From a virus, in the IMG/VR virus record IMGVR_UViG_3300005732_000005, positions 76,375 to 140,374 of that record: DNA of 64,000 bases; one strand, 5' to 3'. The notes below the pieces were generated by a model that worked only from the letters and a program-made list of their open reading frames with translations, made no database searches and was not told where the DNA came from. Made by a program: the position numbers and the translations under genes. Below, one piece after another: positions 4,353 to 51,596 of the stretch (the first letter of the stretch is position 1; every line of letters starts with the position of its first letter).

Positions 4353-4919
4353 ATGGCTACAGATAATACTATAAAACCTGTGGCGATTATAGATCCACAA
4401 ACCAAACGGGAAGTGTACACATCTTCCTTAACAAATATGCGGGGAAGCGGTTTTTATGGCTTCCAAGATACACAATACACTGGGGCTAATAAACTCCTTG
4501 TAGCAGAAGACATCCAAACAAAACTCACTTTCACTAGTCCAACATTTGTCAAAGATAAACGTCCTCAAATAGGAAACACTTTCTACGATATGTATGATTT
4601 CACTTCACAAACAATTATGACATATCCTGAGTTTGAAGATGGTATTTATCGTGTAAGGTTACAATTTGTTGCAGAGAATACTACAGGTGCGAGTGGGCAA
4701 GGTGTCAGGGTTAGTCTGTACAGTCCGTCACAGGGTTTTTCTTTGGATAGGAATACGATTGCACTAGTTAAGGGTGCAGGTGAGCCACAGAGGGTTAGAG
4801 AGGTCTTTACCTTCTATTCAGATTCTTTGACAGATGATGGTTTAGAAATAAGGATCACTCCTTTGAATGGAGATGTTCGTATCTATAATGCTAACCTTTT
4901 AATAACAGCTAATATGTAG
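4353..4919 (+). CDS. putative structural beta-sandwich protein
   Basis: 188 aa, coupled to its neighbours. Confidence 0.4.
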   Translation: MATDNTIKPVAIIDPQTKREVYTSSLTNMRGSGFYGFQDTQYTGANKLLVAEDIQTKLTFTSPTFVKDKRPQIGNTFYDMYDFTSQTIMTYPEFEDGIYRVRLQFVAENTTGASGQGVRVSLYSPSQGFSLDRNTIALVKGAGEPQRVREVFTFYSDSLTDDGLEIRITPLNGDVRIYNANLLITANM

Positions 4920-5986: not shown

Positions 5987-7240
5987 TTGAGAGGAATAGA
6001 AGATAGTTTTACAGGTACAAAGTTTGATACTCCTAAAGGAGGTGTACTTACTGTGCTAGGTCATAATGGTTTGGCAGGGAATAAGAGGAAGTATTTCGTT
6101 GAGTGCAACATTTGTAGCAAGGATGAGGAGTTATTTCCTGATGGTTTTGTCTCCAGTAAAGGTAACCTTTTAATTGGTAGGATTCCGTGTGGCTGTGCTG
6201 TTAGTACTAAGTGGACGGAAGATCAAAGAATTGTCCAGATAAAACGGAAGTGTGAAGAGAGGGGTTACGATTTTCTAGGGTTGGCAGAAGAGTTTAAAGG
6301 TGGTCGTACTAAATTGAAGTTGTACAATCCCAAAACAAACAATACTTGGGAAAGTTCAAATATAACAGGTTTCCTTCGAGGAAGTGGAGATCCTATTGAA
6401 GGGTTTTTGAAAACTAAGGAGGCTAGTACTTCACTTGATGAGGTACACATTGAAGAGTTTATTAAGACAGGTAAGTTCTTAGAAGGCACAACCTTCACAC
6501 GTAATACAACTAAGAAGGATTCTAGAGGAAGGTATCCGTACTGGGATGTAATATGTCCTTTGTGCAGTGATGATGAATACGTGAAGAATCGTGTATGTTC
6601 TGGTATTTTTTCATGCGCGACCAGTCACCTTAAAAGGGGTAAACTTACCTGCAGGTGCTCCAAAACTTACCGTTGGACACAAGATCAAAGAGAGTATCAA
6701 ATCGGAAAAGTATGCTCGCAAGAAAACCTTACTTTCATTGGTTGGGAGGGAGAGTATAAAAACTGTAAAAGTAAATTTAATTGGAAGTGCTCAGAAGGCC
6801 ATAGGAACGTAACTTCTTTAAATGATTTCTTAAAAGGTATCAGATGTACACAATGTTTTCAAGAATACTCGGTTATTAACGGTTATTACCCTGACCGAAC
6901 GAAAGAACAAGATTACTTATATATCTACTATTTATCTGAGGAGAATTATCTAAAGGTAGGAAGAAGCTTCAACTTAAGCCGAAGGCAAAAAGAGAACCAA
7001 ATACGTATAAATAACTACAACCCACATTCAAAAATACGTGTCCTTAAAACCTTTACAGGTACTCACAAAGATATATACGATCTTGAACAAAAAATCCTAT
7101 CTGACTTGAAAAGTTTCCAAGTAAATGGTTACGGTTCGAGTGAATTATTGTCTGTAGAAGCCTTACCTTCTATATGGAATATCATTAATAGTTGTCAGGA
7201 AGTGACTCTATACCAAAATAAACTTATAAAAGAGGAATAA
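5987..7240 (+). mobile_element. free-standing homing endonuclease: Zn-ribbon repeats plus C-terminal GIY-YIG-like (T5orf172-type) domain
   Basis: repeated CxxC...CxC..W modules; C-terminal YLYIYYLSEENYLKVGRSFNLSRR...E; TTG start after GAGGAGG. Confidence 0.7.
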
Positions 7241-7244
7241 AATA

Positions 7245-7796
7245 ATGGATTTTTCAAGTAAATCGGTTCCAGTTATTGCAGAGTACCTGAGGTTTTGGCT
7301 AGGTTCGGCAGGAGACTCTGTAATTTCAGATGAAACCCTGAATTATATCATTGAACTAACCCTTGCCCAAAATGAAAGTGCCTCGGGTTGTGATATAATT
7401 TTCAAATCGGCCATATCAACATTGGAATGGTTGATTCGTAAAAGCGAACAAGGTAGTGCTGGTACTAGTGTTGGTGCGAGCGGAGAGTTGGAGAGTTTCA
7501 CAGAGCAGGTGGGCGAGGTCACCATAACCAAGAAATTTGACGTTTCTGGAACAACAACTTCGGGCAAGGAGGCTGGGTGGGATCGAATATTGTCTGATCT
7601 CCTTGCCGACCCAAACAGCATCGGGTGTGTTGTCACTCAATCTGAAGCTGTTGTTAAAGGTGTCGGGGAATGTCACTTCGGAGGAACATCCAACGAAGAA
7701 TACTCACGTGTCAAGAACAACCCTGACTCAAGAGGGGCATTCTCTTCATACTCAGCACCTTACCGACAGAATCTTGCTGGAAGAAAACTTTACTAA
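7245..7796 (+). CDS. head-tail adaptor / head completion protein
   Basis: LRFWLG...ISDETL N-terminus and EQVGEVTITKKF motif typical of myophage adaptors. Confidence 0.6.
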   Translation: MDFSSKSVPVIAEYLRFWLGSAGDSVISDETLNYIIELTLAQNESASGCDIIFKSAISTLEWLIRKSEQGSAGTSVGASGELESFTEQVGEVTITKKFDVSGTTTSGKEAGWDRILSDLLADPNSIGCVVTQSEAVVKGVGECHFGGTSNEEYSRVKNNPDSRGAFSSYSAPYRQNLAGRKLY

Positions 7797-7824
7797 CAAA
7801 AAGGAGGCTTACGCCTCCCTCCCC

Positions 7825-8805
7825 TTACCTCAAAACCTTCTTCTCAACAATTTTCCACTTCTCAGCACCACTCACACCTTGCACAAAAGAAGTAAACCCT
7901 GCCACAAAGAATCTCTGCTGCCCAATATAAGCCTCTGTTTCAGTGAAGTAACTATCCCTAACAAAGATGCTTATACGTTTCTGATTGTTATATGGAACTG
8001 TAAACACTTTTGCCGTCTTTGGCAAGTTCTTTTTAATCTCATTAAGATATTCTTTCAAAGAAGCAAACCCTGTGGCAGAGTTACAATTCTTATCACAACC
8101 ATTCACCCAATCAAGAAACCTTACTCGATACTCATGATACCCTACCTTAACTTTCTCTCTTACAATTTGATACTGTGGCTGAGACATTGCTGCTTGTGCC
8201 TTAGCTAAGTTTTCTTCAACAACCTTTCTTTCGTGATCATTACTTGCCCATAGTTCGAACATTGGTTGACAAGTAGTTCTGATCAAATTGTCCTTTGGTA
8301 AACGTAAAAGTGTCTTTAAGGGAGACTGATTACTTTCTACATGTGTTCTGTATGTCCTTAAGCAATGCATATTACTTTCCACAGCAAAACTAAACTCTGC
8401 AGACTCTTTCATTACAGATTGAAATCCTGCACAATTATTATCCTTATCAGCAAACACTCTTCCAACCTGAACACCTGCAGCCCAACTACCATTCCCGAAA
8501 GCATTATTCTGCACACCAGATAACCTTGCCTTAGAAGCACCTGCTGATACATAACTAAAACTCTGAGCACAACTAGCACCATCCTTACCAACACTATTTA
8601 CAGGAATATTACCTATTGGACTACTGAGATACATTTGTTGCTGCATAACCGCTGTGTTGGCATTAGATATCGCTTGTGATTGATCCTGACTCCACACCTC
8701 ATTCTCACTAGAAGGGTAATTTGGGCAAGTTCCATCTGAGCAAGTGTTATTTGCCAAAGTGTTTGTTGCAAAAAGTAAAGCTGTTGTTAAAATAAGTTTC
8801 TTCAT
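7825..8805 (-). CDS. exported protein with Sec signal peptide
   Basis: MKKLILTTALLFATNTLA signal; several Cys pairs; GGAG RBS. Confidence 0.65.
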   Translation of the reverse strand: MKKLILTTALLFATNTLANNTCSDGTCPNYPSSENEVWSQDQSQAISNANTAVMQQQMYLSSPIGNIPVNSVGKDGASCAQSFSYVSAGASKARLSGVQNNAFGNGSWAAGVQVGRVFADKDNNCAGFQSVMKESAEFSFAVESNMHCLRTYRTHVESNQSPLKTLLRLPKDNLIRTTCQPMFELWASNDHERKVVEENLAKAQAAMSQPQYQIVREKVKVGYHEYRVRFLDWVNGCDKNCNSATGFASLKEYLNEIKKNLPKTAKVFTVPYNNQKRISIFVRDSYFTETEAYIGQQRFFVAGFTSFVQGVSGAEKWKIVEKKVLR

Positions 8806-9622: not shown

Positions 9623-11548
9623 TCACTCCTTCAAACTACCCTCCTTTGTTCTGATTAAGTATATTTCACTCTCATCACAATTACGTTCATAATGATACCA
9701 AGATCCAGGACGGTGTTTTCTGCAACTCAATCTTAAGAAAGTTGTTCCGTTAAAAAGAGTGGATTCTACATCTAACACATCTACAACGTTACCCTCGTCC
9801 ATATAAAAATCCGCATCCCCACTAACAACAATTTCCACCTCATCACCAACCTTAATCCCTAAATCCTTCCAATTTTCCAGAGTGATACGTACTCTGTTAG
9901 AGCTTACCTTATTGGTAGGTGTTTCTAGCTTCTCAGTGATACTCTGAGGGACTTTCTCTACCAAGCAAGGTGAATACTCCTCGGGAGATAACATACGCTC
10001 CAAAGCTTTCTCATGAGCCGATAGAATACCTTTTGCAAAGTGTAATTGTTTCTCAAGGGTTTTAATCTTAAGATTAATCTCTTCTACAGCAAGTTTATCG
10101 TTGTAAATAGTTTCTTGTAAATTTGTAATTTGTTTCATAATTATAACCTCTCTAAGATTGAAACCGCTATTAAAATTAAAACTGGAGTAAATAACGCACC
10201 CATACAAAAACCTTTCCAAAAATCATCCTTATCTAGCGAATTCACTTCCCTGCAGTGTAGTGCTTTTGGTGGAACTAATCTACTCTTACCATTACTACCT
10301 GAAAATTCTGACATCACTCTTTCTCCTCTAGCTAAAAACCACTTCCCACAATACCACTATCATTGCAAACAAGCAACCTATTTTTGCACCTAATGTGAAA
10401 CTTTGCACAACACGTTTCTTCACCCTAGGAACTCTTTTCATAATGGCTTTGCTTGAGAGTAATGTCAATGCTACCAAATAACAAATTGTTGCATAAATTA
10501 TTATTGGAATAGCTGTCACTTTGTTTTCTCCTCAAACTTTTTCTTTAAACGTAGATATTCCTTCTTCTCGAAATATTCTTTTGGTAGAGTGCAAGTGTAT
10601 TTCTGAGTACCTGCTTGTCGAGAACAATTCCTCCGAAAGAACTTATCTATTGTATCAAAATAGCCACCTGAGTCAATACCTTTTTCAGGGATATGTTTCA
10701 CTAAGATTCCATGATCACGGCAATCTACTTCTGTCATATATGCTTGGTGACCTGACAATACTCTATAATAACATTTACCAGAGACCTTTCCTTGGTATAA
10801 TTTACTACTCCCTCCCCAAACACCTCTGTTAATATCTTTAATCTCTACGTAACCCTCTGGCAGAGCATAACTCATACTAGGTAATCCAACCATACCTACC
10901 AACAATAAAACCTTCTTAAAACTCATTCTACGTCCTCCTAAAATCAATTTCACAAACAAGAAAGCCCTCTCACCAAGACTCCCTCTTCAATAAGGAAATA
11001 TTAGCAAAAGGGCTTATGTTGTGTCAAGAGTTATTTTTGTAAATCCACCAATTTAATTTCAATAAGGCCACATTTATAACGAGACTGTCCTTCCCACCAC
11101 TCATCCACTTCGTCGTCAGTTTTCCAACCCAAAATCTCATAAGTGTGGTTACTTAGAAACAATTCAATACTATCCGTTTTACAATAATGAGCTGTCTCAA
11201 TAATAACACCTGAACCTAAAGTGTCATGTACAACCCAAAATTTAGGTGAAAGTTTTTGTTGTTTGTTCATTATCTTCTCCTTTATATAAAATTTAAACAT
11301 CCATATAAATAAGCTTTTATAGACTTATCGCAATTAGCTCCGTTAATAACTTGATATTCTCCGTCACCTAAATCGAAATACAATTGCGAACCTGTACTCA
11401 ACGATGACATAAAACCTGCCTTTTGGTAAACTTTAAAATCTGCAAACCATTTTGGTTCGTCATAATGAGAGTTAATCTCGTTTAATAGGTCAGCGATCTC
11501 TTCATCAGGGTGTTGTGGTTTGTAAGGTAAAAATGTTGTTGATGGCAT
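9623..11548 (-). CDS. run of small hypothetical genes (9623-10138, 10328-10519, 10516-10926, 11031-11270, 11282-11548)
   Basis: head-to-tail ORFs with GGAG/GAGG RBS; no family recognised. Confidence 0.55.
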
Positions 11549-25620: not shown

Positions 25621-26581
25621 ATATAGATTAGTGGTAGGAAAGCCTCCTATCACTACTATCACTACAGAGTATATTACTGAAGATGAAGTATTTGGTCAAC
25701 TGTTTATTCCCAAAGAGAATGATTACCGTACAGTGACATTAAATGCTGTAGAGATAACCGAGCTTGATATAAACGCCACTATTTCAAGTAAGGCAGGTGG
25801 TAAGAATTCGTCATCTGTAATTAAGATTTATAACTTGTCAGAAGATACTCGTAATATTGTGGAAAGAGTGAATAACTACGTTATTCTAGAGGCAGGTTAT
25901 GCTTCTGATGAAGAGCTTAAAGTTGTATTTACTGGTCAAGTGAGTGAGTTCTTTACAGAGAATGTCGGAGAAGATTTAGTGACTACTTTACAATGTAAAG
26001 ATGGTTATATTCCAAACAATACCCTCAGGGTAGACAAGTTCTTCCCAGCAGGGGTTACCGCAGATACCATATTTAAGTACATAATTGACCAGTATAAAAA
26101 GGTTGGTGTTCCGTTAGGTTTCTATTCAGGGTTTAGCGATAAGAAGGAACGTGTTGAGTATGTCCAACTTCCTATGCCACAAGACACCACTTTCTATATG
26201 GGATACACTTTAACAGGTTATCTCTGGGATGAACTAAAAGACTTGACTAAAAGTTTGGGCTATGTTTGTTATATTACAAACGGAAGATTGTTCATCCACC
26301 CGAAGGGATTCACTCGTGCAGTGGAGCAGTTTGAAGTAGATCATTCTCAAATATACTCTATTAAGAAAAGTGGTAAAGCCAACAACAATACTACTGGTAA
26401 ATCAGATACTGGTGTAAATATATCACTTCCTTTAGATGCAAGGATGGATGTTGATAAACAGATCAAAGTTATTGGCGGAGACTTTGAAGGTGTTTATAAA
26501 ATTATGGAACGTTCATTTAATATCAGTATTTTTGATGGAAACTTTGATACCAATCTAGTTTGCAAATCGGTAGAGGCATAA
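25601..26581 (+). CDS. baseplate hub protein
   Basis: IKIYNLS...VILEAGY...VFTGQV...CKDG. Confidence 0.75.
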   Translation: MPLLKRKYRLVVGKPPITTITTEYITEDEVFGQLFIPKENDYRTVTLNAVEITELDINATISSKAGGKNSSSVIKIYNLSEDTRNIVERVNNYVILEAGYASDEELKVVFTGQVSEFFTENVGEDLVTTLQCKDGYIPNNTLRVDKFFPAGVTADTIFKYIIDQYKKVGVPLGFYSGFSDKKERVEYVQLPMPQDTTFYMGYTLTGYLWDELKDLTKSLGYVCYITNGRLFIHPKGFTRAVEQFEVDHSQIYSIKKSGKANNNTTGKSDTGVNISLPLDARMDVDKQIKVIGGDFEGVYKIMERSFNISIFDGNFDTNLVCKSVEA

Positions 26582-26681
26582 TCTTGCCTTTACCACACTC
26601 ATTCTCTCCCGTCAACACTCCTCTCGCATAATCCTCTCTTTAATGTTATAATAAATAATACAAACAACATAGGAGAGAGGG

Positions 26682-29337: not shown

Positions 29338-30138
29338 ATGTCAGACGTTAAAAACATTGACTTTAATACCTTTCCAGATGAATTACTTCCTACCAGATTC
29401 TTATCAGATGATAGTCACACCCGTTTCTTAAAGGTATTCCTTGAAGAAGAGCAATTGTTCCAAGATGAACTGAGAAAGTTTATCGAACAAGGGATGGACG
29501 TTGACAAGGCTACTGGTAGACAGTTAGATATTGTTGCAAAGTTATCTAATATTATCAGAGACACTGATGAGGCAGATGAAGATTTAAGAAGCAGAGTTAA
29601 GCTTCGAAGGTTTATTGATAATTCCTCAGGAACGATTAATGAACTTTTAAGATTTCTAAATGAGATTACAGGTAATACAGAGAGTAAACTCTTTGAATAC
29701 TATCCTGCTTCTATAATGGCACAGACCACTTCTGAAGATTACCCTGCAGACCTAGCAAATAGTTTTGATAAATTATGTGCCTCGGGTGTGAATGGTCATA
29801 CAGTTTTACACCTTCGAGGTGGTAATGGTTTAATTTTCGAAGATAGTGCTGCTACCCACACTCTTGTTGCAACAGGAAGTGGTGAAGTTGGTATGGGGGC
29901 AGGAGAGGATACAGCACTCTCAGCAGGGTATGTATTACCAGACGACCCATCTACCGTAAAAGAGTCCAGTAAGTTGGTAGATTCTACATTACTATATAGA
30001 AGCTCTCTAAGAAACTCTGGTGAAGACAGGATGCACTCTGGAGAAAATGAAGCTGATTCAGGCGGACTTATTTTAAATGATCCCCCTATTCTGAAAGGTG
30101 TTCTTGGTAATACATACACTAATGATAAATATTTGTAG
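29338..30138 (+). CDS. baseplate wedge protein (DUF2612-like)
   Basis: DKATGRQLDIV...DEDLR...SSGT. Confidence 0.75.
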   Translation: MSDVKNIDFNTFPDELLPTRFLSDDSHTRFLKVFLEEEQLFQDELRKFIEQGMDVDKATGRQLDIVAKLSNIIRDTDEADEDLRSRVKLRRFIDNSSGTINELLRFLNEITGNTESKLFEYYPASIMAQTTSEDYPADLANSFDKLCASGVNGHTVLHLRGGNGLIFEDSAATHTLVATGSGEVGMGAGEDTALSAGYVLPDDPSTVKESSKLVDSTLLYRSSLRNSGEDRMHSGENEADSGGLILNDPPILKGVLGNTYTNDKYL

Positions 30139-36980: not shown

Positions 36981-37274
36981 CGTTACAGTCACACAAGGTC
37001 GTTAATCTTGCGCGGTTCTCTTATGAACTCCTGTACGTCTCCGTACAGACTAGACTATATCTTTCTCTTCAACTTTACTTGTTAAGAGATCTGCCGTTTC
37101 GATTTAAAGCTTTCCGCTACCACTTGGCTCTACTCCCATCTCAGGGATAGTCGTTACACGTTCAAGAACATAATGTTCAAGCTTCGCTCGGTATTGTCTC
37201 TTCAAAAGAAGTAACTTCCACCGAATTAGACAGTATTCAATTATAGGTTTCCCTATAAAGGGGCTAATTATTTA
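36981..37274 (-). ncRNA. group I intron (IA-type, no ORF), 294 nt
   Basis: P1 GGU|UAA-AUAA-UUAGCC with U.G; P AAUUCGGUGGAA, Q AAUACCGAGC, R GUAACGACUA, S AAGAUAUAGUCUA, terminal G; removal gives KGITYG|IMYG. Confidence 0.95.
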
Positions 37275-39233
37275 ACCATAAGTGATGCCTTTGCCACCTT
37301 GCCTAGTTACCTCCCTTCCTGCAGCCTTGGAGTAGTTTTCAGCATTTCTTGAGTGAGCATCTTCTTCCTCCATTATCCTAAGATATTCTCCTCCGTCAAA
37401 GTCATAGGCTGCCCACGCTGCACACATCCCTTCCAAGTTACTACCATCGATACCTAGTTGCCAGAATCCTTTTGGAACGGTGAATAAGCTCCTCATTTCA
37501 TGACCTAAAAGTGCATCTGTAGAAGGTATATTTGCTATAACTGAGTGTTTTCTGCGATTCGTATTGGTCAGACCACTATATCTTGCAGGTAATTTACCAT
37601 CTATTTTCAGACGAGGGTGGTTCAGCCAACCAGTTTCCTTATCTTCGTCAAAAGCTTTAATTACCGACCTCCTGTTACGAAGAGATAGCCACTTAACTAT
37701 CTGACCCGCCATCTCACCATCAATCTTTTCCAGATTAGGGCAAAGCTCCCCACGATCATCTTTCAACTTTGCAGACATCGGTAAGAATCTTCCCTTTTTA
37801 ACCACCCTTTGCATATCTTTGTGCTTCTCAGAGGTGATTTTCCTAATATCGAAGCCCATCTCCTCATTAATCCATTTTATGTAGATGGAGTCCTTCTTAT
37901 CCTGCACCCATTCCCATGCCCTTTCCAAGACTTCAAATTCTGGGCGGTTCTTCTTGTTCTCGTCTCTTGTAACATCTTTTGTTCCTAGTATGGTAGGTAT
38001 CCAACCACCTTCCTTAACCAACCACTCCTTTATATCTGCCTGATTAGCTAGTTTCATCGGCTCTTTTAAGAACTCTTCTGGAATATGTCTATCCTCTAAT
38101 TGTTTTCTTAGTTTCTTCATCTGGTCATCAGGTAAAGGAACTAAGGTATTAGCTTTATTAAGCTGACCACGTATAAAATCGGGCATCTTATCTTCATCCT
38201 CCACACCCATCTTAATACAATAGTTATAACCGTTCTTACTTAGAGATCCGTCCTTCTTAAAGGCAGTTTTCGGAGGAGATACGTGTTGAAAGTATTCCTC
38301 ATTAGGTTTGTAGCCTAAATACTTTCTTGCATAGTTCCATCCGTGACTACTTATTTCCCCTGCCTTATCAAAAGGATTAGCTGGAAAGTTAGGTTGACGA
38401 CTCTCAGGTACATGTTTTAAAGGCAGTTTGGGTTCCACATCTTCCTCTATTTCCCTCATCATACTATCCACTTTCTCAAGCAATTTCCAAGCAGCCTTTT
38501 CATCGAAGACTACTCCCTGCTCCTCTTGGATTTGCATCAGATAGTCTGATTGAGAATTTCTTAATAAGGGAACTCTCCAATCAATACCCTTATCCTTCCC
38601 ATCCTGAGATTCTTTAACCAAAGCTTGCCATTGCAATTCATTTATGATCACATCAACCCATACTCTGTCGCAATACTTCCACAAAGGTAGCCCTCTCCAG
38701 TCTTCTATTTGAACTTTTTGATTTGCAAGCTTATAGCCCCAGCTCTCTAATGAATGGCTGCCAATCGTCTTAGCCTTACCTCCAGAAGGATTCTTAACCT
38801 TAGAGGGACATCCGTGAGGTAATGGTCGGTCAGGGTATAGTGCCCTTGACATACTTAGTGTATCAAACAATCTTAGTTTTCTACTACCAATACTTTCTGG
38901 AAACATACTTGATTCCAATCCAAATTGATCAGCGATTGCCAGCAAATCGAATCCAAACTGGTTTTGACAACCTATAGCAGAAATGTCAGAGTCGTTCTCA
39001 ATCCAATCAGGAAACTCTTTTAAATCTTTAATTCTTAGGTTGACATTTTTCTTATCAACAAATTCTTTTGCTTCTTTAAACTCGGGATGGGAGTGATCAA
39101 GAAAGATCACCCAATCATCTTTTGCATATTGTTTAAAGAGCATTACGTGAAAGTGCGTCATATGGTCTTCAGGTGCAATGCTTTTACCAGCTAAACCGTC
39201 ACTTTCAGTATCGTAAATATATAAGCCCTTCAA
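37275..39233 (-). CDS. polA: DNA polymerase family A, exon 1 (3'-5' exonuclease, motifs A and B); spliced product ~905 aa
   Basis: ExoI YDTESDG, ExoII NQFGFD, motif A GIDGSNLE, motif B RQGGKGITYG. Confidence 0.93.
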
Positions 39234-41551: not shown

Positions 41552-43141
41552 AACTCTCTCCCCAAAACACCCACACAATTATCCAAACTCCCTTCCACAA
41601 AACATTCCTTCACGACAACAAACCCTTTCTCAAGTAAACTTCTTGCTGTAAGGGTTGTGTAAATTCTTGCACAAGTGTTGTCCTTGTAATAACTAAAACT
41701 CTGTTTACCATTATCCATTTGGAACACATATATTATTTTTCCAAAAGATATCTGTATAAGCATAGTTTTCTGAGCACTGGTTAATTTATCCATCAAAACA
41801 CCCTCATATCAAAACTATAATTTATCCGATGACATAACGCTTTTGCAGATTGTCTATCTATTCCTAATAAATCAGCAAATTGTTGGTGTAAATCTACTCC
41901 TTCTGCAATTAACAGATTTGCCTTAGGTTGTTTATACACTTTAACAAAAGCTAATATCTGTTCATCATTAATAAAAGTATAATCCATCTTGCTCTACCTC
42001 CTTTTCTTCGTAACAACTGTTCATATGATCATACCACTCATCAAACTCTTCGTAAAGACTTTTATACTCACCTGATATAATGTAAGGCTCGAACATTTCA
42101 AAAAGGTTTTCTATCTGACTTTCATAGTTCTTCAGTTCCGCTGTACCTTTTACATGCAACAAATCATCTTCTGCTTCAATCATTTGAACACTTGTAAACC
42201 ACCCTTTCCGACCATTATTAAAGAATTTGTAATCTTTAAAATGAGGAGGGTAAATCTTATATGTAAAGTGTTCACTTTCGCTGTGTGGTTCTTTCAGCCA
42301 CTCAATAAGTTCTATCAAGTTGGTATCTTTCTGCAATACTAAGTCATACTTGAGTTCCGTATACATACCCATCTCTATCCTCCAATCTTCATAACAACAT
42401 TATGTACCATTGCCAAATATTTTTCAGCAGCACGTTCCCATAATAAATCTTCCACTTGTTTAATGCAAACTTTAATATCTCCATCTTCTTCTAAATCAGA
42501 TAATTTTATGTCCAACCTCTTTGGTAGGAGATCATAAGCATCCACATAAACCTCTATAATATAATTACAGAAAGACCAATCTACAGCAAGGAATTCATCT
42601 TCAAGTATACCTGTGATAACACCTTTTGTGATATCAGGGCAACCACTTTCCGTCTTTTCCAACCCAATCATCTTCGCCAATTCTACTTTATTCATTACCA
42701 CTCTCCATAAGACGACCCCACTCTTCACTTAAAATCTTCTCTACAGATTCTCTGTGGTATTTCAATTGTGACAAATGATTCCATAAAACAGGATTCACTT
42801 CCACCTTAAAGAACTCTGGAGCAATGTCCTTAAACCCTTCATCAAGATTATAATACTCTTGAATCATTAATATTTCATATTCGTTTGGTAACTTACTCAT
42901 CACCTACCCCTCTTTCTAAAACAGTATTTTTATAAGAGTTTAGATCCCATTCAGTTGGGTCACCTTTACACCAAACACCTGCCTGACCTGAAAAATATTC
43001 CGACATATAATTTACAGTACTCCCTTTCTCAGCACAAAGCTTTTCAGCATAATAAATATCTACACCATCGATTGTTTGCCAAAAACAACCTGACAAGGAT
43101 AGTACTCCTGCAGTAATAATTGACATCTTAATTTTACTCAT
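41548..43141 (-). CDS. run of small hypothetical genes, including a lipoprotein (42893-43141)
   Basis: coupled ORFs; LSLSGC lipobox in the last. Confidence 0.55.
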
Positions 43142-43256
43142 AACAAATATTTCCTCCGTCTATCCACTATTTTAATATATTAATACCTATCTTTAGTGAT
43201 TGTCAATCACTAATTAGACAAATTTGTATTTATTTAAAATAATGTTATAATTAAGT

Positions 43257-43500
43257 ATAGGGTGCAGGGAAAGCAGAGCTTTCTTTACGTCACCACCCTG
43301 ATACTTGGTTAATCCTGTATAAACCACTAGGTTTGATTAGGTTCGAAACTGATCACTATAAACGCTTAGAGGCAAAGCCTCAACGCTTAGGACTGAATCC
43401 GTTTAGTGGATAGCGTTAGCTATCTTCAGTATGTGGCATCACAATTTTCTTGACTAGCCAAATCTTCTAATACTTGTTGTATTGGGTGAAGTTCATCCCA
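43257..43500 (+). ncRNA. candidate structured non-coding RNA
   Basis: ORF-free, GC-enriched, behind TGTTATAAT (43243-43251); several nested stems and a T-loop-like GGUUCGAAAC. Confidence 0.6.
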
Positions 43501-43502
43501 TC

Positions 43503-46438
43503 TTAAAGGGTGTTTAATTTCCATTCTTCCTCCATACACTCTTTCATTCTTAAAGTTGTAGCATCATTCAAATACCAAGTATCAAAAGGTAGTTTACCTT
43601 GTTCACGTTCACTTAGTTCCAAATTAGCTAACCAAATCTTTGCATTAGTAAGGGCTGTGAAATTAGGATTACCCTTCCCTTTACCAATTGTATTATAATC
43701 AATAATTTGTTGACATTTTTCTCTTGTTACAATCACACCCACCTCCTCCAAAATTTCCAATCTTTATAAATAATCTGCCCGTTAAAGTGTACCTCTTTGA
43801 ACCGAGATAAATCTTGGACAGAATAACCTTGCTCATAATATGTATCTTGGTCAGTTGTTGTATAAAGTTTACCACTGTGAATTAATTGTTCACACCAAAA
43901 ATGTTCCACATTATGTCCGATAATAATTCTTGAAACATTAACAATACCTGTCCAAGTTATAGTTGTCAAGTAAGCATATTGTTTTTCACTAGTATCATTT
44001 TGCATAAAACTTTCCTTTGTCACAATAATTGCATGGTAACTTCTGAGGTTTTTGCCAACGGTAAATTGTCATTCCGTCTAGTTTATATCCTTCAGTGTAT
44101 CCTTTATCTTTGCAGTGTTTACATTTTGGTTCACTCACTCTCCCACTCCTTAAACTGTTCTTCCAAGAACTCTACTGCATAAGGATCATTTGTTTGGAAA
44201 CTACTATTGGAAAGCAATTCTTTGCAGAAACCCTCCAATACAGAAAATTTATCTTCAACAGGTGTTTTTGCCGAAGGTAGTTTATCTTTATAGTCTCCCC
44301 ATTTAGGATTCCAATCTTTCCCAATAATCAATCGTGCTCGCCAGTCTGACATATCCGCATAACGACCACTTTCATCAACAATAGTTACACTTACAGAATC
44401 AATTCCATCTACATGACGTTCAATCTGTTCTTGGATTTCTGCTGCTTGTGAAAGGCATTCTTTGATGGTACGTGACATACCTCCCATACTAATACATCCA
44501 AAATCACCTGCACTTTTAGGAGTGAGTTCTAAAGTAAAATCGAAACACACCATTTTTGTCATCATAATAACTCATCACCTTCTTCCTCCACTATCAATAC
44601 ATTTCTTGCACATCACTTTATCAAAAGCTTTCCCCGTTAACAAGGAACTCTTTCCACAATAGTCACATTTTCTTCTAACACTCACTATTGCTAAGAGGAA
44701 AACTGTTATACAAATAAGAGCTACGATACTCATATTACATTCCCAAAGCTGTCATAAACATTCGGAAAATAAAGGATGCCACAACTAAAAATACCACTAT
44801 CACTACAGGTAGTGCAAAGAATAAAATAAATGTAGTACACACCTTATCACTTAAATTATCTTCGTTGTGGTAACTTATAACTAAGCATATACAAAACCAT
44901 ACGCAACCTATAATAGCAATACTTTGCTCATCCATCACACAACCTCCAACCTATTCACTTCAGCAAGCTTCTCTTTTGCATCTTCAACCTCTTGTTCAAG
45001 TTCACGGATCTCTAACTTCAGATTACGAACCTTGTCAGCATATGTATCAATAGTGAAACGACAACGTTGTGTGATACGAATCTTCTCTTCTTTGGTGATA
45101 GTTTTAACATTACTCATCAAATCTCTCCCTCTTTAATCATCTTAACGATTTTACTAATTTCTGCAGCAATTCCTGTTTCTGGCAGGGTGTCTGTATTATG
45201 GATAAGCTCACCATCTCGGTATACATATAAACAATGACCATATTGCTGAATGACACAATCCTTATAAATTTGAATATTGTGCATCTACCTTCCCTCCTCA
45301 AAACGTTCTTCCGAAATAACACCTATATCACTATTCATACACTCCAAAACTACCTCACTAGGATAATGTCCATGAGTAGATTTAAAATCCTCTTGAACAC
45401 TTACTCTCAGCCAATCCTTTGCAAGAGCTTCACCTTTATCAGTCCACTTCTGAGGAGGTAACTCTACCTCAATCCCAATCTTCTTGTCAACAACTTTCAC
45501 TTTAAAAATATATTCTTTCACACATCCTCCTCAAACCCTCTCAAACACTCCTGACGCTTCTTATGTTTCTTTAAGGAACGTTCGTCCTTTCCACAAGAGA
45601 TATCCTCTCCAGAAGCTTCCTGCTTACTAGAATTAATCTTTTCTAGTATGTTTTCCTTAAAAGGTTTATATGTATCCCCTTGTTCAGCCATCCCTGCCAA
45701 ATAAATCATCCCTTTCTTAGACAACACTTTCAGCATCTCATATTGCCAAGCGTTATACTTTCTTTTGAGGTAGGACATTATTTGCAAGTTCTTCTTTGCA
45801 ATAGAAAGTTGACTCTTGAGAGCAGTGTTATCTTCTTCAAGTTCACGGATTCTCTCTAGGTAATGTTCGTTCTTCATAGACATACTCATTCTCCTACAAT
45901 TTAATTGTTTCAAGGTTATTTGTCTTCAATTTACGCATCAGTTCTTCAAATGTCAAGTCCGAAAGTTCATCCCCATCAGGGTTTATTTTCTTGAGCTTAT
46001 CTTCTGAACAAGCGATAATATTCCCCTCTTTAGTTGTGAATGGTAAGAACCAACCAAATTCGTAATCGTTTTTTAACGGGTTATAATATTTACTAGATTC
46101 ATTCAGTACAAACCTCTTACCTAACAAACTCTTGTTTTTGTGCTGATGAACATAAATAATCTCCACCAAATCACCTTTCTTGAATTTCATTATTTCTTCC
46201 TCCAAAGTTTCTTATTTTGTTGCTGCTTCACCCAAAAATGTTCTTCTTCTAGTATACCGTCTTTTGGTAGAAGGAGTGTAACCGAGTCACATATCAATCC
46301 TTCTTCAGGAATACCTACAACCACTACCTCTTTTCCCGCAACCTTTAGTGCAGTAATAATATCTTCTGAGTAAACAACATCCTCATCTGCTGTAAAACTT
46401 ACATAAATCTTTTCTTCGTACATAATTATTTCCTCCAA
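43503..46438 (-). CDS. run of about 10 small hypothetical genes
   Basis: head-to-tail ORFs with RBS; divergent promoter region at ~46440-46620. Confidence 0.55.
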
Positions 46439-50596: not shown

Positions 50597-51496
50597 ATGG
50601 CTACAAGTAAAGTATTTACTAAAGGGAAGAGATACTTCTCGGAAAAGTATGGTTGGGCACAGATTGTTGAGTACAGAGATAAGTATGACGTACTTATAAG
50701 ATTTGATAGGACAGGTACTATATCTTCTGTAACTTGTGCTTCGTTAAGAGGGTGTTCTTTTCAGGATCTCAACCAACCTACCTTACTTGGTGTAGGTTAC
50801 AGAGGTTATGGGAAGTACTCTACGAGAAGTTCTGATAAGAACGGTAAATCAAGTTCATACCTCTACTGGCAAAGGATGTTAAGACGTTGTTATGACCCCA
50901 AGTGTGCTGATTATAAAGATTATGGTGCGAAGGGTATTACTGTTTGTAAAGAGTGGCATAACTTTCAGAATTTTTCTGAGTGGTTTTATTCTCAAAAGAA
51001 CCATACAAGGAAAGGTTACCATTTAGATAAAGATCTAACTGTTAGAGGTAATAAGATCTATTGTGCAAAGGCTTGTAATTTAATACCCGCAGAGTTAAAC
51101 ATTATGAATATAGATAAGATTGCAAAAAAGTTTTCCGTTAGTTCAGCAGGTAATTACAGGTTCAGTTCTAGGGAAGGTGGGTATTACTCTTCTTACGAAG
51201 AGTGTAAAAAGGAGTATACTAAGTTTAAAAGAATTAAACTGGGAAACCTGATAATTAAAAACTATGAGGAAGGTTTGATACCTTATGAAGTTTACAAGAA
51301 TCTTCTATTTATATTGAATGATAATTTTCCCTCTGAAAGTGTAGATGAGTTTTCTTTATGTAATATGGACACACCAGAAGATACGGTGAAAGATATTATA
51401 GATCTTTTACCAGAAGTTAATGCACCAGAGGGGTGTTACCATCTTTTGAATAAACTAGTGGGTAAGGTTGAATGGGATAACAAACATTATAAATAA
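50597..51496 (+). mobile_element. HNH homing endonuclease
   Basis: WQRMLRRCY...YGAKGITVCKEWHNFQNFSEW...HLDKDL...N..Y....CNLIPAELN. Confidence 0.8.
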
Positions 51497-51596
51497 CCTC
51501 AAAAACTAATTGCTTTATTGAAAGAGGTTCTTCATACTAGAGTCTCTTTCTTAATAATACAATTCATAAATAGATAAGTTTTTACAGGAGAAAATT

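Follow-up and report, generated by a model that had tools for sequence, protein, structure and literature searches.

In TnpB elements, the bases situated just past the right end serve as the guide. Solitary CRISPR repeat units, which are carried by viruses and bind Cas proteins, are known as RNA anti-CRISPRs. OMEGA systems include stand-alone omegaRNAs (Altae-Tran et al. 2021, as summarised in PMC10691335), which act in trans and were described from genomes with a compatible effector locus. Gene-less PATEs encode omegaRNAs which require TnpB in trans (Meers et al. 2023, 10.1101/2023.03.14.532601).

The DNA considered here (the window, i.e., the whole stretch of 64,000 nucleotides) comprises bases 76375-140374 of a virus genome of 140,374 bp with direct terminal repeats, which is rated complete; the primase/helicase of this phage is 82% identical to its counterpart in Vibrio phage 11895-B1. 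One gap in the window encodes, with a probability of roughly 0.8, an orphan scaffold of the omegaRNA family. The RNA family is encoded beside a clade of TnpB proteins and is therefore considered a guide-RNA scaffold.

As in the stand-alone omegaRNAs of OMEGA systems, neither an effector nor a transposase adjoins the window scaffold, which occupies a separate site and has its own flank as the presumed guide, and action in trans would be expected. It differs from them by its location in a complete phage genome without an effector and by promoters of its own, one of which is of the phage type. Stand-alone omegaRNAs as such are known; the unusual part is the absence of any nuclease. The homologues resemble the omegaRNA (reRNA) of the IS200/IS605 TnpB elements ISDra2 and ISGst in that a multi-helix scaffold follows tnpB on the same strand, and in that the scaffold end is the element boundary, followed by a variable flank. 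In contrast, the scaffold of the present clade does not overlap tnpB, being situated 45-65 nt past it, and has its own sigma-70 promoter; and unlike in IS200/IS605 omegaRNAs and PATEs, neither a Y1 or serine transposase nor a conserved left end was found. A further difference to described omegaRNAs is that no Rfam or other model matches this family, one bacterial copy of which is located among integron attC-like repeats. RNA anti-CRISPRs are comparable insofar as a scaffold-only RNA of an RNA-guided nuclease is present in a virus without the nuclease; however, TnpB is not CRISPR-Cas, there is no evidence of inhibition, and the same type of RNA stands beside TnpB in a related phage.

The earlier note on this DNA had proposed a new ncRNA. 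A structured non-coding RNA without Rfam match is indeed encoded on the + strand, but it belongs to a TnpB-linked family and is not isolated, and the locus should no longer be filed as an unexplained new ncRNA. The results define an RNA family outside Rfam together with its clade of TnpB proteins of about 483 amino acids, with intact RuvC triad, in marine phages, Veronia and Motilimonas. In this clade the guide RNA appears as a separate, promoter-driven gene without overlap with tnpB, and a virus which lacks the nuclease can retain a guide scaffold, seemingly under constraint.

Extent, fold and family of the RNA

The RNA-bearing gap is placed between a gene for 82 amino acids (42893-43141, minus strand) and an ORF of 32 codons (43426-43524, minus strand). 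From about 31 kb to 47 kb of the window the genes are on the minus strand, and the RNA gene is opposite in orientation to all neighbours there, in agreement with the antisense position claimed before. Likewise, the gap is free of ORFs of at least 30 codons on the + strand, and it is GC-enriched (local GC 0.36-0.415 vs. 0.29-0.35). A highly structured RNA of ~245 nt had been postulated; a structured and conserved RNA was found, but its length and fold are different. It is a conserved omegaRNA-like scaffold of about 180 nt (43256-43435, + strand), of which the core (43256-43412) is covered by a covariance model, R1; the window copy matches this model with 169.9 bits (E 2.5e-40). The consensus fold has -49.7 kcal/mol in the window copy, the minimum free energy fold -51.3.

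All helices are on the + strand. P1 (43260-43264/43294-43298) encloses the hairpin P1a (43266-43274/43278-43286); in ten RNA copies P1 is 100% paired, with compensatory changes at 3 of 5 pairs, and P1a is 96% paired, with such changes at 7 of 9. The domain described before as AGGGTG/CACCCT around GGAAAGC/GCTTTCT is therefore present, and it is conserved with covariation in ten homologues. P2 (43299-43317/43328-43345) is a long, irregular helix with five G.U pairs in the window copy and 5-7 per copy in general, and therefore forms only on the + strand; its 17 pairs are 90-94% paired, 12 of them having changed on both sides. P3 is a multi-branch domain (43354-43408) with the closing helix CACUA..AAC/GUUUAGUG and the hairpins GAGGC/GCCUC and GGA-CUGAA-UCC, its 21-nt core TAGGACTGAATCCGTTTAGTG being identical among the window copy and both copies of L028, a 7-kb fragment of a related phage. 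The junction CACTA..AACG/CGTTTAGTG with two small hairpins, also drawn previously, was recovered here and is conserved with covariation in the ten homologues. The hairpin P4, GAUAGC-GUUA-GCUAUC (43409-43424), is present only in the window copy and in L028 copy 1, with a 1-nt deletion in the loop as the sole difference; the pairing GATAGC/GCTATC thus exists in the window, but is not conserved across the ten homologues. P5, ACUGA/UCAGU (43348-43352/43426-43430), encloses P3 and P4 and shows a compensatory change from G-C to A-U between the window and L028 copy 1 (ACUAA/UUAGU).

Other pairings suggested before did not survive the comparison. A long-range stem (43305/43452) would have its 3' half beyond the element end (43435); the bases of its 5' half are paired locally, with 43328-43345, in all copies. 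The hairpin TAAACC/GGTTTG competes with the conserved P2 and is lost in other copies, as is the T-loop-like hairpin GATTAG/CTGATC, whose 5' arm is part of P2. A tRNA-like (T-loop) identity was rejected, since ARAGORN found no tRNA or cloverleaf and the putative T-arm hairpin is not kept elsewhere; the statement that the RNA is neither a tRNA nor a recognisable group I intron was correct, the gap region having no match at E<=10 to any Rfam family, among them group I intron, 6S, Y RNA, HEARO and the IS605-orfB motifs. The duplication of AACGCTTAG is real in the window, but it is unconserved in TnpB-linked copies; L028 copy 2 contains AATGTCAAG and AAGACGTAG instead. Nothing was found in support of a two-site protein sponge, whose "two sites" would be this repeat, unconserved in the family, or in support of an antitoxin mimic or a virion-assembly RNA.

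Taken alone, the thermodynamic evidence for structure is modest. For 246 nt the folding z was -2.55 (+ strand) and -2.28 (minus strand), corresponding to a rank of about 23 among 2,560 folding windows (about the top 1%), and that of the 181-nt unit was -2.05. Folding energy does not discriminate, because a known group I intron is outside the 30 most stable folding windows. The DNA polymerase region contains a group I intron (37031-37283, minus strand; Rfam RF00028, 74.9 bits). GC-corrected folding energies beyond that of the RNA gap (z -2.4 to -3.2) were obtained for the regions 7651-7950 and 10851-11150 on the minus strand and 26401-26600 and 29451-29800 on the + strand.

L028, the first relative, was found by a scan for the duplicated 9-mer and is 83-87% identical to the window over three common stretches. 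It carries two RNA copies, copy 1 at 6233-6412 (+ strand) and copy 2 at 4448-4607 (minus strand), the latter being divergent in sequence; copy 1 is the closest copy to the window RNA (92.8% identity). Model R1 was built on five copies from a hand-checked, nearly fully paired structure. It matched copies outside the model in Motilimonas eburnea (L049, E 5e-13) and Veronia pacifica (L050, E 5e-9; L138, a second, tnpB-less copy in Veronia, E 2e-14) and, with filters off, gave weak full-length matches exactly after tnpB in the loci L051 (E 0.013) and L053 (E 0.032). No match with R1 was obtained beside 80 more distant TnpBs or in nine related phage records, and six other RNA copies had no match in Rfam at E<=1. 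Contigs with TnpBs of 78-96% identity (one of 140,903 bp) were outside the survey of RNA copies. A blastn search of the gap region against 50,697 phage records gave no match, and in related phages the DNA upstream of the primase gene (nine loci) is without the RNA and most of the flanking genes. A pattern match of TTAGGTTCGAAACTGATC in L003, inside a coding region, and a match of the 19-mer core in metagenomes (L045), in a high-GC gene, were rejected as chance; the 19-mer core had no match in genome contigs.

The covariation across relatives called for in the earlier note is present. In the ten RNA copies 93.9% of pair cells (49 pairs) are paired, vs. 40-51% with slid partners, and changes on both sides occurred at 35 of the 49 pairs; the observed values were reached in 0 of 500 shuffles. 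Fitting the ten-copy alignment to the model biases it towards the structure, but the difference from the controls is wide, and three of the copies did not depend on the model. G.U pairs amount to 18% of pair cells, and this on the + strand only; in keeping with the many G.U pairs noticed before, 95.2% of cells pair on the + strand vs. 77.6% on the reverse strand. From the share of G.U pairs and the poorer pairing of the reverse strand it follows that the RNA is read on the + strand of the window; G.U-rich helices also rule out a structure at the DNA level. Wherever the two are linked, the strand of the RNA is that of tnpB.

The linked TnpB clade

Between its two RNA copies L028 contains a gene for a 483-aa protein, which is TnpB/Cas12f-like. 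Searches with this protein gave a Cas12f1-like TNB zinc ribbon in Pfam (1.2e-15), with weaker, sub-threshold matches to RuvC and OrfB_IS605, and "transposase" in PHROG (3e-33); the best PDB matches were TnpB and Cas12f. Twenty sequences of the clade were compared: all of them have D266, E349, D440 and three zinc-finger cysteines, and the fourth cysteine, C414, is present in at least 90%. Because these residues are invariant or nearly so, the TnpB of the clade looks like an active RNA-guided nuclease.

Further TnpB loci were drawn from viral and genome collections. The proteins are 82% identical in Pseudoalteromonas phage J2-1 (L047), 85% in L048, 55% each in Motilimonas eburnea (L049) and Veronia pacifica (L050), and 36-38% in three loci from uncultured gammaproteobacteria; clade members are also found among proteins named by their sources as Vibrio and Photobacterium. 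The clade is rare, with 1 of 400 sampled Gammaproteobacteria and no further members there. Among 151 Vibrionaceae genomes, a single one (1/151) contained the RNA, and it was also the only one with a TnpB of the clade.

A copy of the RNA is present in seven of eight clade loci, the eighth (L052) ending 177 nt after tnpB. In six of seven tnpB-linked copies (L028 copy 2, L047, L048, L050, L051 and L053) the RNA follows the tnpB stop at a distance of 45-65 nt, on the same strand; L028 copy 2, for example, begins 65 nt past the stop, behind TTGACT-16-TATAAT. The Motilimonas RNA is situated 630 nt upstream of tnpB, and L028 copy 1 is not downstream, but divergent from the tnpB start. Because of this variable placement, the RNA is not always at the right end of a transposon.

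Several of these loci deserve description. In L028:4448-6412 the TnpB gene stands between two diverged inverted RNA copies, which have their own promoters and outward 3' ends; this arrangement may represent a single nuclease served by two guide genes, or else two elements side by side. An interpretation of copies 1 and 2 as terminal inverted repeats was rejected, as their tips are unrelated. The 483-aa TnpB gene of J2-1 (L047:1501-2952; MF370964.1 85576-87024) is without an annotated feature in GenBank; its RNA gene is at L047:3017-3195. In Veronia pacifica, L050:1-2209 (tnpB and RNA) and L138:1500-2086 (RNA only) are embedded among repeats of the type GTGCGCAGCCGTGTAGGCGGCACTGAAG, which look like attC sites of chromosomal integrons; owing to such surroundings, the unit of tnpB and RNA may perhaps travel as a gene cassette. 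A run of U follows the scaffold in both Veronia copies, and the flanks there are homologous. In L048, three tRNA genes (899-1122) are directly upstream of tnpB. This contig was binned as a Flavobacteriaceae MAG; with its TnpB 85% identical to a phage TnpB, it is probably a mis-binned phage contig.

Promoters, element end and the missing nuclease

The RNA is preceded by two putative promoters. A phage-type box, TGTTATAAT (43243-43251, + strand), would place the start near 43258. This box recurs: seven copies are present in the window (597, 3520, 5932, 9578, 18118, 26644 and 43243) vs. 1.57 expected, a number reached in 0 of 100 shuffles, and six more elsewhere bring the genome to 13. They are mostly located 20-30 nt before a ribosome binding site, in the common context TGTTATAAT-WA..TAT and without a -35 box, and they head, among others, the tail-completion/sheath/tape-measure operon (18118) and the baseplate operon (26644). 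The box looks like the phage's own promoter class. Of the "late-type promoter" of the earlier note, the box itself was confirmed, and it is also found before tail and baseplate operons, but late timing is only plausible. Relative to L028 copy 1, the window box arose by an insertion of about 9 nt. The second promoter is sigma-70-like, TAGACA-17-AATAAT (43215-43243, + strand), and points into the RNA; equivalents are TTGACA-16-TAAAAT at L028 copy 1, TTGACT-16-TATAAT at L028 copy 2 and a TTGACT box at the same place in L047 and L048. In the opposite direction, TTGACA-18-TAATAT (43177-43206, minus strand) serves as a predicted promoter for the 82-aa gene, and the homologous region of L028 heads tnpB. 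Operator-like inverted repeats (43194-43221), namely TAGTGATTG-T-CAATCACTA and TTGTC-N12-GACAA, overlap the -35 boxes of these divergent promoters; in L028 a variant, TTGTCAA-N8-TTGACAA, is found at the same place before tnpB. No terminator was found on the + strand after the RNA.

The window and L028 copy 1 are homologous between about 43168 and 43435; the homology ceases at 43435/6, the flanks beyond being unrelated; the bases after copy 1 in L028 are homologous to window positions 51568-51492, which is a different site. An end which is common to two insertions in different contexts looks like the right end of a mobile element. The three phage RNA copies downstream of tnpB diverge straight after GATATAACAY. 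At the same point of the window a PinA-like gene is cut: of its 32 codons (43426-43524, minus strand) the first 30 match phrog_15899 and are followed by ATY-stop. The match corresponds to the N-terminal half of this 65-aa family and ends with ...ENCD, the last codon being 43438-43440; the C-terminal half is absent throughout the phage genome. CR3_233 and a ChuuTotoro protein annotated as "host protease inhibitor" belong to the family, which is a distant relative of PinA. The truncated gene retains its ribosome binding site and 30 conserved codons, and it overlaps the end of an upstream 85-aa gene. A minus-strand intron or translational bypass was considered and rejected: a 40-codon frame has no family match, the C-terminal half is missing, and the fold is on the + strand.

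The stop of homology at 43435/6 and the PinA-like gene cut there argue for an element end with a guide derived from the flank. The presumed guide, i.e., the first 20 nt of the flank (43436-43455, + strand), runs antisense to the cut gene at its conserved ...LASQENCD codons. Over positions 2-26 of the flank, pinA genes of distant phages agree in 22 of 25 nt, which is a weak match (E=7). An intact PinA-like target gene was not found in ten related phage records, nor was a second match to any candidate guide or tail found within the phage genome. A common TAM could not be read from the two junctions; the sole vacant site (window 51492-51568 vs. the L028 flank) is approximate, with indels at the junction.

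No TnpB was detected in the complete genome of 140,374 bp, either with the L028 protein, with the TNB domain or by six-frame tblastn. A Y1 transposase is absent from the phage of the window and from the complete phage J2-1, and upstream of tnpB in L028, L047 and L048 no conserved left end was found. The site expected of an omegaRNA, on the strand of tnpB and at its 3' end or beyond, is occupied by six of the seven tnpB-linked homologues, but not by the window copy. The place of tnpB in L028 is occupied in the window by the 82-aa orphan gene (42893-43141, minus strand), whose product had no relative but itself among 5.8 billion proteins, belongs to no Pfam or PHROG family and has no similarity to TnpB.

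Possible roles of the orphan copy

Since this phage lacks TnpB, its RNA is either a remnant or relies on a nuclease from another genome. For the second case a mechanism of guidance in trans, as for a stand-alone omegaRNA, can be outlined tentatively; it is the best-supported reading, although we would put it somewhat below an even chance. Points against it are the absence of TnpB from the phage and the rarity of the clade, the target gene not found intact in ten related records, the lack of a readable TAM, of a terminator and of a transposase or left end, and the position of the RNA, which varies relative to tnpB. The RNA would be made from its own promoters, i.e., the sigma-70-like box and the phage TGTTATAAT box, and the transcript would extend past the scaffold into about 16-20 nt of the flank, which would act as a guide antisense to the PinA-like ...LASQENCD codons. 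It would stay idle unless a compatible TnpB arrived in trans, most plausibly from a co-infecting relative of the L028 type. Such a TnpB would then cut uninterrupted copies of the PinA-like target gene. During repair of these cuts the RNA module would be copied into the genes and thereby spread, as has been proposed for gene-less omegaRNA elements.

It is rather unlikely, on balance, that the RNA is a relic, possibly transcribed, but functionless. In that case a TnpB element, or a module of tnpB and RNA, would have lost its nuclease gene by deletion or by exchange for the 82-aa gene, and the RNA would be the end that remains. This would agree with a complete genome devoid of TnpB, with an 82-aa orphan at the tnpB position of L028 behind a homologous promoter region, with the truncation of the neighbouring PinA-like gene and with the lack of the RNA in nine related phages. 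The pattern of changes speaks against it. The RNA is 92.8% conserved between the window and L028 copy 1, whereas the adjoining 110 nt upstream, with the divergent promoters and the operator-like repeats, are 74% identical (65% counting gaps). The two RNAs differ by 13 substitutions and one loop deletion, and none of these breaks a pair; three substitutions changed G.U to A-U, and one pair was changed from G-C to A-U on both sides. With the copies downstream of tnpB as outgroup, 11 differences in the core could be considered, of which 8 fell on the branch of the TnpB-bearing L028 and 2 on that of the window (one-sided binomial P ~0.055 for <=2 of 10). The gain of a box of the phage's own promoter class points to use as well. 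Unbroken pairs, the split between the branches and the gained TGTTATAAT box argue for constraint, or else for a very recent loss of tnpB, which would account for the signs of constraint, too.

If constraint on the orphan omegaRNA scaffold is accepted, a lytic phage without nuclease might keep the guide scaffold of its rivals under selection, either hijacking TnpB in co-infection or using the RNA as a decoy; this proposal is speculative and, in our opinion, unlikely. Hijacking, if true, would make the RNA a guide-only gene-drive parasite, by which phage DNA is copied into rivals. The decoy taken by itself, a scaffold which soaks up or misdirects the TnpB of rival phages or of the host, and thus a TnpB equivalent of RNA anti-CRISPRs, is improbable. 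A scaffold kept under constraint in an effector-less genome, strong predicted promoters, including the box that heads late structural operons, and the apparently active TnpB of related phages could be explained by it; however, nothing indicates that phages are attacked by TnpB of this clade, the L028 copy adjoins TnpB, which is a poor fit for an inhibitor, and there is only one copy per genome.

Still less probable is an effect in cis, by which transcription from the late-type promoter would oppose and shut off early minus-strand genes (43426-43760 and beyond), the scaffold being incidental. The orientation against all neighbours between 31 and 47 kb, the + strand without terminator and the TGTTATAAT box common to structural operons would suit such an antisense function, which leaves unexplained, however, the covarying fold in ten copies and the linkage to tnpB; moreover, some copies are co-directional with their neighbours. 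The least probable alternative is a TnpB-linked RNA other than a guide, e.g., a regulator of tnpB expression or a structure of the transposon end, as might be suggested by the variable position (upstream in Motilimonas, divergent in L028), by the operator-like repeats in common with the tnpB promoter and by the homologous flanks of both Veronia copies, which start with a U-run, but the RNA resembles omegaRNAs in its size and multi-helix form, in closely following tnpB on the same strand (six loci), and in its sharp end, past which the flanks are unrelated.
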